Assembly: GCF_057098645.1 (NCBI RefSeq)
Contig: NZ_CM169472.1
DNA: 64,000 nt
Strand: one strand, 5' to 3'
A program made the position numbers and the translations under genes. Numbering within the stretch: the first letter of the stretch is position 1; each line of letters opens with the position of its first letter. Below, one piece after another: positions 14,352 through 64,000 of the stretch. The notes under the pieces are model-generated. The model saw only the letters and a program-made list of their open reading frames with translations. It ran no database searches and was not told the origin of the DNA.

Positions 14352-14411
14352 TGGCGGAAGCGCAGAGATTCGAACTCTGGAACCCTTTCGGGTCGCCGGT
14401 TTTCAAGACCG
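14352..14411 (-). other. serT: Left prophage junction (attL): 3'-terminal 60 nt of tRNA-Ser(UGA) serT, from anticodon stem to CCA; the 5' part of the tRNA is missing here
   Basis: tggcggaagcgcagagattcgaactctggaaccctttcgggtcgccggttttcaagaccg is the reverse complement of the serT 3' portion; identity stops inside the anticodon stem and integrase follows. Confidence 0.8.
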
Positions 14412-14552
14412 AAGAAAAACAAATAAAAATCAGTGTAATACGTGAAATTGCTGAAAAGTTAATCAAATTTAACACCAAGAAAAATCAAGGTATTAGGAAG
14501 TTGCTCATAGCTAGTATACCAAGTCTTTTTGCCAGAAATTTTTCTGGATTGT

Positions 14553-15572
14553 CTACTTGCTAACCACGAGCGGCAAATCCAGTGTTGGTGTGATTTTTGT
14601 TTTACGATCGTAAATCAACACCTGATTTTCTGTTTTATGCCCGCTGAAAATTTGTTTGTCGCGACTGCTGCCTTCGTAATCTGAGATCCCCTTGGCTTTT
14701 ATGTCGTGAAAATTGCACCCGAACGGAACGCCAACTTTTTGCTCGGCTGCGCGTTTAGCCTGATTCCACCAGTTATTCAGCGTTTTAGCTATGACTTTCC
14801 CGCCTTTGGTTGTATTGATCACATATTCGCATGTACAGGAAGATACATTTCGGGCTAACTGGATCGCTGTACGTAATCGCGGTGACCATTCCTTGATTTG
14901 TTTGGTGCCGGTTTTGTTTTGCTCAATGTAGATCCCTTTATCCATAATATCCTGCCATTTCAACTCAAGCACATCACCGAGTCTTGCCGCACAGAGATAG
15001 GAAATCTCCATTGCAATGCGTAACTGTGGAATTGCTTCCGCATATATCGCCGCATACTGTTCATCGGTGATGTAAACAGTGCGGGCTTTAAGAGAGAATT
15101 TTCTGACTCCTTTGCATGGGTTATTCTTCACATACCCACGCTCATATCCCCACCCGTATACTCGACTCAGGCTTGCCAGTTCATGATTTGCCTGGGTCTT
15201 GCTCTCAAGCCCTTGTTTATCCATGAAAATTCTTACCTGCTCAGTTTTGACATTATCAGCAAGCACTTTTCCGAATACCATCAGCAACGCCTTCTGATGT
15301 TGTCGATAATCTTTTTGGGTTCGGGGGGCCAGTTCTGTAAATGCAGGGGAGTCCATAAACATGTGCCACAATTTAGCTACGGTCATTATGTTGTGGAGTT
15401 TTGCTTTTTCCAGTTCATAATTTTGCCAGACTTTAGCTACGCTGGTTTTCCGCACTCTTCCTAGCCCTATACTTCTTGTACTTCCTTCGGGTTTCCACAC
15501 GTAACTGTAACCATTCGATCTAACCCGCGGTGGCAGTACATTATCTTTTTTATTTTTTCTTGGTCTTCCCAT
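14553..15572 (-). CDS. int: Phage integrase (tyrosine recombinase)
   Basis: 339-aa ORF next to attL; C-terminal catalytic region with conserved R...H..R...Y pattern. Confidence 0.85.
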   Translation of the reverse strand: MGRPRKNKKDNVLPPRVRSNGYSYVWKPEGSTRSIGLGRVRKTSVAKVWQNYELEKAKLHNIMTVAKLWHMFMDSPAFTELAPRTQKDYRQHQKALLMVFGKVLADNVKTEQVRIFMDKQGLESKTQANHELASLSRVYGWGYERGYVKNNPCKGVRKFSLKARTVYITDEQYAAIYAEAIPQLRIAMEISYLCAARLGDVLELKWQDIMDKGIYIEQNKTGTKQIKEWSPRLRTAIQLARNVSSCTCEYVINTTKGGKVIAKTLNNWWNQAKRAAEQKVGVPFGCNFHDIKAKGISDYEGSSRDKQIFSGHKTENQVLIYDRKTKITPTLDLPLVVSK

Positions 15573-15792
15573 TGTTCAGCGCCTCAAAATCGGGTTCAGC
15601 AGAAACCAGTTCAGATGTTTTTGGCATCGTTGTCAGACCGTGTGGAATATCCCTGCGGAGAACTATGGGTTCGTTTTTAGGGCCGATTACAAATGGGATG
15701 CCGTGCAGTCTTAACTGGTGTTGCTGTTTTGTGTATCGCTCGTATTTCGTGATCTCTTTAATCTCTGCTGGAGATAGAGTTAATTCGTACAT
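15550..15792 (-). CDS. xis: Putative excisionase (start assigned at the internal Met MYELTLSPAEIK)
   Basis: Small basic ORF overlapping the int start, the typical xis position; the upstream part of the 126-aa track ORF looks non-coding. Confidence 0.5.
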   Translation of the reverse strand: MYELTLSPAEIKEITKYERYTKQQHQLRLHGIPFVIGPKNEPIVLRRDIPHGLTTMPKTSELVSAEPDFEALNNGKTKKK

Positions 15793-15859
15793 GTGGTCAC
15801 GTGCCTTTACAGCATGACCGCCGCCACTATAGCTGGTGGGCGGCGATATGGGTTGAACA

Positions 15860-62788: not shown

Positions 62789-63388
62789 ATGCGTAAACTT
62801 TATGCCGCCATTTTGTCCGCAGCCATTTGTCTGGCCGTATCCGGTGCACCTGCATGGGCGTCTGAACATCAGTCCACGCTGAGCGCGGAGTACCTTCATG
62901 CCTCGACGAACGTTCCCGGCAGCGATGATCTGAACGGGATTAACGTGAAATACCGTTATGAGTTTACGGACACACTGGGGATGGTGACGTCATTCAGCTA
63001 TGCAGGAGACAAGAATCGCCAGCTGACCCGTTACAGCGATACCCGCTGGCATGAAGATTCCGTGCGTAACCGCTGGTTCAGCGTGATGGCGGGGCCGTCT
63101 GTGCGCGTGAATGAATTGTTCAGCGCGTATGCGATGGCGGGTGTGTCTTACAGCCGTGTGTCGACTTTCTCCGGAGATTATCTGCAGGTGACCGACAACA
63201 AGGGGAAAACGCATGATGTGCTGACCGGAAGTGATGACGGTCGCCACAGCAACACGTCTCTGGCGTGGGGAGCTGGCGTGCAGTTTAACCCGACCGAATC
63301 CGTGGCCATTGATATTGCTTATGAAGGCTCCGGCAGTGGCGACTGGCGCACTGACGGTTTCATCGTGGGTGTCGGTTATAAGTTCTGA
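62789..63388 (+). CDS. lom: Lom/Ail-family outer membrane protein
   Basis: 199-aa ORF with signal peptide and beta-barrel-like C-terminal ...GVGYKF. Confidence 0.85.
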   Translation: MRKLYAAILSAAICLAVSGAPAWASEHQSTLSAEYLHASTNVPGSDDLNGINVKYRYEFTDTLGMVTSFSYAGDKNRQLTRYSDTRWHEDSVRNRWFSVMAGPSVRVNELFSAYAMAGVSYSRVSTFSGDYLQVTDNKGKTHDVLTGSDDGRHSNTSLAWGAGVQFNPTESVAIDIAYEGSGSGDWRTDGFIVGVGYKF

Positions 63389-63413
63389 TTAGCCAGGTAA
63401 CACAGTGTTATGA

Positions 63414-63443
63414 CAGCCCGCCGGTTCAGGCGGGCTTTTTTGT
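63414..63443 (+). terminator. Rho-independent terminator after lom
   Basis: Hairpin agcccgcc...ggcgggct followed by T6. Confidence 0.7.
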
Positions 63444-63452
63444 GGGGTGAAT

Positions 63453-64000
63453 ATGGCAGTAAAGATTTCAGGTGTACTGAAAGACGGCACAGGAAAACCG
63501 GTAGAGAACTGCACCATTCAACTGAAAGCCAGACGGACCAGCAGCACGGTGGTGGTGAACACGGTGGCCTCTGAAAATCCGGATGAAGCCGGTCGTTACA
63601 GCATGGACGTTGAGTACGGTCAGTACAGCGTCATTCTGTTGGTGGAGGGCTTCCCGCCGTCACATGCCGGGACCATCACCGTGTATGAAGATTCTCAACC
63701 CGGTACGCTGAATGATTTTCTCGGTGCCATGTCGGAGGATGACGTCCGGCCGGAGGCACTGCGCCGTTTTGAACTGATGGTGGAAGAGGTGGCGCGTCAC
63801 GCTGAGGAGGCGAAGAAGAATGCCGGAGAGGCGGAGACGTCAGCGAGGAATGCCGGCATATCAGCCAGTCAGGCAGAAGAGAGCGCTGCAAATGCTGACA
63901 CTTCAGCAGGGGAGGCATCGGAGTCAGCCCGGCAGGCGGCAGAAAGTGCAGCCTCAGCAAAGCAGTCAGAGGAGGCGTCCTCGTCCTCGGCTTCTGCGGC
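63453..64000 (+). CDS. stf: Side tail fiber Stf, N-terminal part (continues beyond window)
   Basis: MAVKISGVLKDGTGKPVENCTIQLKARRTSSTVVVNTVASENPDEAGRYSMDVEYGQYSVILLVEGFPPSHAGTITVYEDSQPGTLNDF. Confidence 0.85.
   Translation, partial: MAVKISGVLKDGTGKPVENCTIQLKARRTSSTVVVNTVASENPDEAGRYSMDVEYGQYSVILLVEGFPPSHAGTITVYEDSQPGTLNDFLGAMSEDDVRPEALRRFELMVEEVARHAEEAKKNAGEAETSARNAGISASQAEESAANADTSAGEASESARQAAESAASAKQSEEASSSSASA

Follow-up and report, generated by a model that had tools for sequence, protein, structure and literature searches.

The stretch of DNA analyzed here (the window) comprises 64,000 nucleotides of contig NZ_CM169472.1 from NCBI RefSeq assembly GCF_057098645.1. Bases 1 to 14145 are ordinary Escherichia coli chromosome (helD-mgsA-rlmI-tusE-yccA), and a lambda-like prophage runs from about base 14348 past the window end at base 64000. 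Three insertion sequences (IS), one deletion, and one frameshift interrupt genes of this prophage. An earlier reading, made from the letters alone and called here the sequence-only reading, took the prophage to be grounded and domesticated, with selection maintaining only its cargo. We present here a comparison with sibling prophages, in which four of the five lesions look recent and their placement shows no detectable bias away from cargo.

The prophage is lambda-like, of the Sakai Sp4/CP-933M kind, and lies in the 3′ end of serT (tRNA-Ser) of an E. coli of the enterohemorrhagic/enteropathogenic (EHEC/EPEC) type. Its attL core (14348 to 14411, minus strand) is a displaced 64-nt copy of the 3′ part of serT, with the tRNA 3′ end at 14352. 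ARAGORN called no complete tRNA at this core, and the copy exactly matches the 3′ portion of the full serT gene at the distal end (attR) of the Z1323HEC0422 prophage. A tyrosine integrase gene adjoins the duplicated tRNA 3′ part, as expected of a lambdoid prophage in a tRNA gene, and the modules follow in the order int/xis, recombination, immunity (cI/cro/cII-like), replication, Q, lysis, terminase, head, tail, and J. The nearest records come from chromosomal prophages that occupy the same site in C325, Z1323HEC0399, Z1323HEC0422, OkiPb01717, and the O145:H28 strains RM12761 and RM13516, with 99.6 to 99.9% identity. These siblings continue for about 5 to 6 kb past the window-equivalent end, with a tail fiber, a TccP2/EspF-repeat effector, an EspV fragment, and serT. 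No sequenced free phage of the same type was found in 50,697 phage records, which gave mosaic matches only (≤46% coverage, about 90% identity) and thus no direct evidence of virions from this phage type. The sibling prophages were the basis of comparison, and insertion and deletion junctions were searched for in 5,426 complete E. coli genomes. Empty IS sites were identified by local alignment of the window with C325 and Z1323HEC0422. Gene intactness was assessed by translating every coding sequence (CDS) annotated in the siblings and aligning it to the window.

The three IS are complete. IS2 (22312 to 23642, minus strand, 1331 bp) fits the IS2 layout of terminal inverted repeats and two overlapping transposase open reading frames (ORFs), here of 136 and 301 amino acids (aa), with a 5-bp target duplication, GCGCG, at 22307 to 22311 and 23643 to 23647; the matching sequence in RefSeq is annotated IS2. 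The IS21 element (33671 to 35801, plus strand, 2131 bp) encodes IstA (390 aa) and IstB (266 aa), has the ends TGT...ACA, and is flanked by the 4-bp duplication TCTG at 33667 to 33670 and 35802 to 35805. Sequence matching it is annotated "IS21-like element IS21 family," and canonical IS21 is about 2.1 kb long with a 4-bp target duplication. IS629 (39628 to 40937, minus strand, 1310 bp) has a 3-bp duplication, GGC, at 39625 to 39627 and 40938 to 40940, is 99.92% identical (one base different) to a depositor-annotated IS629, and contains an ALIL frameshift pseudoknot (Rfam, 120 bits). Each of the three lies opposite an uninterrupted, single-copy target in siblings that are 99.8 to 99.9% identical, and all three are clean, simple transpositions. 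The clean duplications had been recognized from the sequence alone, and the comparison with related strains lacking the IS copies, which had been proposed as a check, supplies the matching empty sites.

IS2 divides, after codon 133, the 360-codon gene for an O-like replication initiator, or replisome organizer, whose intact sibling protein matches phrog_3729 (E = 7e-253). A 5′ part with codons 1 to 133 remains at 21913 to 22311 and a 3′ part at 23643 to 24319, both on the plus strand. Two copies of a 21-nt repeat, GCGCGTCACGAAATGTCAYGC, lie inside this gene, at 22037 to 22057 and 23643 to 23663, and are followed by three to four tandem ACAGATAAAGAT units at 23684 to 23730. The repeats together with the tandem look like iterons and an A/T-rich origin. 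The insertion point is the first base of the second GCGCGTCACGAAATGTCAYGC copy, 40 bp upstream of the ACAGATAAAGAT tandem, and IS2 may disrupt this putative origin as well as the O-like gene.

The IS21 element splits a NanS-p-type gene whose intact product is a 616-aa SASA-family esterase. The insertion follows codon 59 and falls in the linker that joins the DUF1737 (residues 3 to 49) and SASA (66 to 262) domains. The 5′ part (33493 to 33670, plus strand) keeps codons 1 to 59 with DUF1737, and the 3′ part (35802 to 37478, plus strand) keeps the SASA and DUF6645 domains. NanS-p is regarded as a lysogen-fitness gene for the use of mucin sialic acid; a 2026 preprint describes it as a capsid-decorating protein in phi24B, an unrelated T=9 podovirus. 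On either view the gene is accessory here, not a core function of a lambda-like siphovirus that already has a gpD-type decoration protein of its own. The right end of the IS21 element contains a GTG that opens an ORF (35790 to 37478, plus strand) in frame with nanS-p codons 55 to 616. This ORF would give an esterase lacking DUF1737, and no obvious ribosome-binding site precedes it.

IS629 interrupts a conserved ORF of 37 codons between the endolysin and Rz genes, leaving its first 17 codons at 39575 to 39627 (plus strand). The predicted membrane protein belongs to phrog_4493 (function unknown) and has the C-terminal hydrophobic helix MKGIEVETPASLDLTRAAAFAIRIVAIAVLVWAIRWW. The insertion lies 66 bp upstream of the Rz start, and both IS21 and IS629 fall in the part of the late transcription unit that separates Q from the terminase genes. 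A strong terminator-like hairpin with a 15-bp stem and a T run (39444 to 39476, plus strand) lies within the late operon between the endolysin gene and the 37-aa ORF; it is native to the phage. The claim that each of the three IS hit a phage function thus holds clearly only for IS2, in the replication initiator; IS21 lies in the accessory NanS-p gene and IS629 in the 37-aa ORF.

The two remaining lesions had been described as frame disruptions in the exonuclease and cro-like genes, and both are present. The exonuclease pseudogene (15860 to 17903, minus strand; 811 aa when intact) carries a 392-bp deletion with its junction at 17526|17527, not a simple frameshift. Codons 1 to 125 (17903 to 17529) and 258 to 811 (17524 to 15863) remain, codons from about 126 to 257 are gone, and no microhomology is present at the junction. 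Since 392 is not divisible by three, the frame is broken. Pfam places an Rv2179c-like 3′-5′ exonuclease domain at the C terminus of the intact protein; as this is a DEDD-type domain, assignment to the RecE-type PD-(D/E)XK enzymes was rejected.

The cro-like (YdaS-type) pseudogene (21155 to 21419, plus strand) carries a +1 frameshift at 21271 to 21278, in a stretch of eight G residues (G8). The frame shifts at this run, after AKLTGG, and the downstream frame still encodes the conserved segment KVLRWCEATGWVVTPHEI. An 80-bp probe over the run matched 16 genomes. Five (RM12761, RM13516, C325, Z1323HEC0422, and Z1323HEC0399) have G8 without an annotated CDS, and nine have one base fewer (G7) and an annotated intact 87-aa helix-turn-helix (HTH) protein, among them the same prophage in OkiPb01717. 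A distant intact homologue of 91 aa confirms the reading frame. On these alignments, the cro lesion is real, derived, and older than the other four. Sequencing error at the run is unlikely, with the same G8 in five independent assemblies. It is highly improbable, more broadly, that any of the lesions are artifacts, whether by a homopolymer miscall or by misplacement of an IS. Homopolymer length errors are common in long-read assemblies, but the G8 recurs in five complete assemblies, and every IS has exact ends, a duplication of the length typical of its family, and a matching empty site.

The other four lesions (the exonuclease deletion, IS2, IS21, and IS629) are absent from the near-identical siblings, whereas the cro slip is shared with a few of them. 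Probes of 300 bp over the left junctions of IS2 and IS21 recovered the junction in 0 of 5,426 complete E. coli genomes. The probe for the exonuclease deletion matched as two pieces spanning 692 bp, the undeleted form, in every best record, and the deletion was in none among the matches listed. The IS629 junction probe gave a few full-length matches. The two that were inspected, in O157:H7 F3113 and in CEC13002, hold an IS1203-type element that is only 96% identical, and in CEC13002 the element is offset by 1 bp. Identity by descent with the IS629 insertion in the window was rejected on these grounds, and the 96% identity and the offset point to independent insertions at an endolysin-Rz hotspot. 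The site could be a sequence-specific hotspot for both IS629 and IS1203. The F3113 copy lies immediately next to terL, from which an IS-adjacent loss of Rz through terS is deduced. The IS629 copy in the window is 100% identical to IS629 copies at other locations in the siblings.

Given the unmatched IS2 and IS21 junctions, the unmatched deletion, the identical IS629 copies, and a backbone identity of 99.9%, four of the five lesions look recent and strain specific. Elsewhere the prophage matches siblings without these IS at 99.9% identity; there has been no time for differential decay. The siblings carry lesions of their own. OkiPb01717, with cro intact, has a frameshift in O, an IS3 insertion in R (endolysin), a frameshift in J, and a frameshift in a small "TrmB-like" ORF (hyp198). 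In RM12761 (O145:H28), IS629 is inserted in int; in C325 it lies inside the tRNA-Arg(UCU) gene; and in Z1323HEC0422 it lies between ylcI and terS.

All remaining genes of the prophage in the window align end to end with their sibling counterparts, without stops and at 98.5 to 100% identity, except J (96.9%) and Rz (94.2%). About 35 phage-function genes are intact. They include int, the xis-like gene, the cI-like gene, the YdaT/cII-like gene (21416 to 21841, plus strand), the gene for a DnaC-type helicase loader (24326 to 25072, plus strand), the DUF1627, DUF977, and DUF968 genes, RusA, and the Q antiterminator (30049 to 30420, plus strand). Among the late genes, the holin (37927 to 38133) and endolysin (38821 to 39354) genes on the plus strand, the Rz spanin gene (41003 to 41470, plus strand), the genes for the small and large terminase subunits, portal, S49 protease, decoration protein, and major capsid protein, and the head-tail set FI, FII, Z, U, V, G, T, tape measure, M, L, K, I, and J are intact. 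The block from terminase through the head, head-tail, and tail genes to tail assembly protein I (42958 to 58394, plus strand) is full length, with 98.5 to 100% identity to the Z1323HEC0422 proteins, and the gene for tail tip protein J spans 59246 to 62722 (plus strand). The head decoration gene (48678 to 49025) encodes 115 aa in the window, in OkiPb01717, and in RM12761, and 93 aa in Z1323HEC0422, where it is probably truncated.

The cargo is equally intact. It comprises the RelE/RelB toxin-antitoxin pair (20048 to 20529, minus strand), which lies directly downstream of the cI-like gene on the same strand; the hok/sok module (27854 to 28178, plus strand), with a sok RNA match at 27854 to 28028 and the hokD CDS at 28023 to 28178; an alpha/beta hydrolase; a CPBP protease; an AraC-like HTH regulator (32012 to 32725, plus strand); a PerC-family regulator (41936 to 42250, plus strand); YlcI; the Cu/Zn superoxide dismutase gene sodC (58585 to 59112, minus strand; 175 aa); lom, encoding an Ail/Lom outer membrane protein (62789 to 63388, plus strand); and three complete tRNA genes (32754 to 33003, plus strand; anticodon CAT, Arg-TCG, and Arg-TCT). 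RelBE, hokD/sok, sodC, lom, the PerC-like and AraC-like regulators, and the three tRNAs are 100% identical to their annotated sibling counterparts. The list of intact cargo in the sequence-only reading is therefore accurate; it omitted the roughly 35 phage genes that are intact to the same degree. Cargo is intact because almost everything is intact.

The contrast between broken phage genes and intact cargo is no more than chance would give. The cargo named by the earlier reading amounts to 3,026 bp, or 6.7% of the 45.3-kb in-window prophage span after removal of the IS, and the probability that five randomly placed lesions all miss it is 0.71. Of the four lesions in coding sequence within the window, one falls in a broader accessory class that makes up 21% of the coding sequence. 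Over five prophages, the independent coding lesions number seven in phage-function genes and three in accessory genes; 3 of 10 compares with 2.1 expected (binomial p = 0.45). No significant depletion of disruptions in cargo relative to phage-function genes was seen in the window and its siblings, taken as these five prophages. Active IS and slippage produce lesions of this kind when the target is large and dispensable, and no tendency to spare cargo was detectable.

Substitutions were compared by the Nei-Gojobori method between the window and three siblings. Pooled phage-function genes have ratios of nonsynonymous to synonymous differences (pN/pS) of 0.16 to 0.19, and relaxed constraint, with pN/pS near 1, was not seen for these genes in any of the three sibling comparisons. 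This reads as a signature of constraint on phage-function genes, not of relaxation. Accessory genes have only 1 to 14 substitutions, too few for an estimate of pN/pS. Synonymous divergence from OkiPb01717 and RM12761 is 0.04 to 0.05 in phage-function genes versus 0.003 to 0.006 in accessory genes, a difference of about 10-fold; relative to Z1323HEC0422 the values are 0.009 and 0, respectively. Between the window and OkiPb01717 or RM12761, blastn identity is also lower in the late region (42958 to 62722). Together these differences suggest that recombination with other lambdoid prophages has replaced sequence in the late region.

That selection keeps only the cargo of a domesticated prophage, leaving phage functions free to decay or selecting against them, is improbable on this evidence. 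The idea has a published basis (PMC6379469), two of the lesions fall in central lytic functions (O and cro), the siblings have independently lost O, int, R, or J, and all of the cargo named in the earlier reading is intact. Against it stand the insertions of IS2 and IS21, which are unique to this strain; the exonuclease deletion, found in none among the matches listed; about 35 phage genes, as intact as the cargo; the IS21 insertion in accessory nanS-p and the C325 insertion of IS629 in a cargo tRNA-Arg gene; the chance placement of the lesions; and the low pN/pS of the phage genes. The observations made from the sequence alone were mostly accurate, and the evolutionary interpretation reads too much into a pattern for which chance and recency account.

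The joint reading that we prefer, with a probability of about 0.72, is that of an Sp4/CP-933M-type prophage at serT which has acquired one older cro slip and four recent lesions, is not autonomous, and shows no cargo bias. By analogy with lambda biology, the prophage would be incapable of self-initiated theta replication without O, and early transcription would not be properly shut down without Cro. With O split and cro out of frame, productive autonomous lytic growth is unlikely, and the prophage is very probably no longer autonomous. The cI-like repressor (20547 to 21047, minus strand) carries just an HTH_3 domain and lacks an S24 peptidase domain, so it is not expected to respond directly to RecA. 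The integration and excision functions are intact, as are Q and the genes for lysis, packaging (the cos side), head, and tail. The prophage may still be excised, and it may be replicated or packaged by means of co-resident lambdoid prophages. It is best described as recently crippled, non-autonomous, and possibly still mobilizable.

Four points weigh against this reading. The pN/pS values are shaped by long-term history and by recombination with other phages rather than by the time elapsed since the IS inserted. Separate hits in O (twice), int, R, and J might stem from weak selection against lytic competence, which a sample of five siblings is too small to detect. Loss of replication is deduced from a single lesion, the split O gene. 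Finally, the right end of the prophage, with the tail fiber, effector genes, and attR, lies beyond the window, and further lesions are possible there.

The term grounded does not fit the excision genes that lie in the window. The integrase gene (14553 to 15572, minus strand; 339 aa) is full length, with one substitution and 99.7% identity over its full length to WP_001299351.1; the DUF4224 xis-like gene (15550 to 15792, minus strand) is 100% identical over 80 aa; and attL is intact, with attR outside the window. A further explanation is that the prophage is not disabled in practice and can be mobilized through helpers, by a supply of O/P-type replication from co-resident lambdoid prophages or by regional replication from a neighboring one, or else regains function by reversion of G8 to G7 or IEE-promoted excision of IS629. 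In its favor, int, the xis-like gene, attL, Q, and the lysis, terminase, head, and tail genes are intact; Sakai Sp4, with comparable defects, was excised and packaged (PMC2669165); IEE promotes IS629 excision in EHEC (PMC9943667); and the G7 and G8 alleles are both present among near-identical prophages. Any co-resident prophages and any iee gene, however, fall outside the scope of the 64-kb window, IS2 separates the iteron-like repeats of the putative origin in O, a defect beyond repair by trans-complementation, and the repressor lacks an SOS-cleavable domain. Practical mobility of this kind is unlikely. A stronger form of the argument, in which G7/G8 is a reversible slipped-strand switch between lytic-competent and locked states and, together with IEE-promoted excision, makes the "defective" state a reversible reserve and not decay, is very doubtful.

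Several smaller features lie outside the lesions. The gene dicB (18185 to 18373, minus strand) is intact and adjoins the small RNA (sRNA) DicF (18550 to 18601, minus strand; Rfam, 76.9 bits over the full model), as in the Qin prophage of K-12. The first tRNA of the cluster (32754 to 32829, anticodon CAT) is called Met by ARAGORN; RefSeq labels the identical sibling gene tRNA-Ile, probably of the lysidine-modified type. An STnc100-family sRNA (33080 to 33270, plus strand; 138 bits over the full model) lies between the tRNA cluster and nanS-p, 400 bp upstream of IS21.

The significance of the prophage is small beyond bookkeeping, and the useful lesson is methodological. In a single prophage, intact cargo beside damaged phage genes is no evidence of selection if the lesions are recent and cargo makes up less than 10% of the target, and sibling genomes with empty sites resolve the question of cargo selection quickly. 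The pattern itself is already known from the O157 Sakai prophages and from EHEC and EPEC generally. Lambdoid prophages that are riddled with IS, partly defective, and equipped with virulence or fitness genes are the textbook state in these strains, and their residual mobility has been shown experimentally.

Among the siblings, the prophages of O145:H28 RM12761, C325, and Z1323HEC0422 resemble the present one at 99.8 to 99.9% identity, with sodC, a PerC-family regulator, and TccP2/EspV-type effectors beyond the window-equivalent end. Sp4 itself presumably lies at serT and carries sodC. The IS629 polymorphism of EHEC prophages is also matched, in that identical copies occupy different locations in close strains (int, tRNA-Arg, ylcI-terS, and R-Rz). 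The differences concern particular sites only, and the R-Rz site has been used independently by IS1203-type elements elsewhere.

The grounded or cryptic prophages DLP12, Rac, Qin, and e14 are likewise resident, carry inactivating mutations, and have kept genes useful to the host (PMC6379469). Qin and Rac also share DicB/DicF, RelBE, hok/sok, and a YdaS/YdaT-type module. A grounded prophage is one in which excision has been lost through recombinase or att defects, with irreversible lysogeny followed by large deletions (Ramisetty & Sudhakari 2019, PMC6379469), whereas the window retains an intact int, xis-like gene, and attL together with the full gene set of about 50 kb. The closer parallel is with Sakai Sp4, which shares the lambda-like order of head and tail genes, a DnaC-type loader, an often-disrupted ExoVIII-type "exonuclease," a peptidase-less repressor, and IS insertions (PMC2669165). 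Repressors without a peptidase domain are found in Sp4, Sp6, Sp9, and Sp10 (PMC2669165). In Sp4, nu1 carries ISEc8, the ExoVIII-type gene is defective, and the putative xis is thought to be non-functional, whereas the copy in the window has IS2 in O, IS21 in nanS-p, and the exonuclease deletion. Sp4 was nevertheless excised after mitomycin C treatment, amplified by regional replication from the neighboring Sp5, and packaged with the terminase of another prophage (PMC2669165), and Sakai prophages damaged to an equal degree were still excised, packaged, and sometimes transferred (Asadulghani et al. 2009, PMC2669165).

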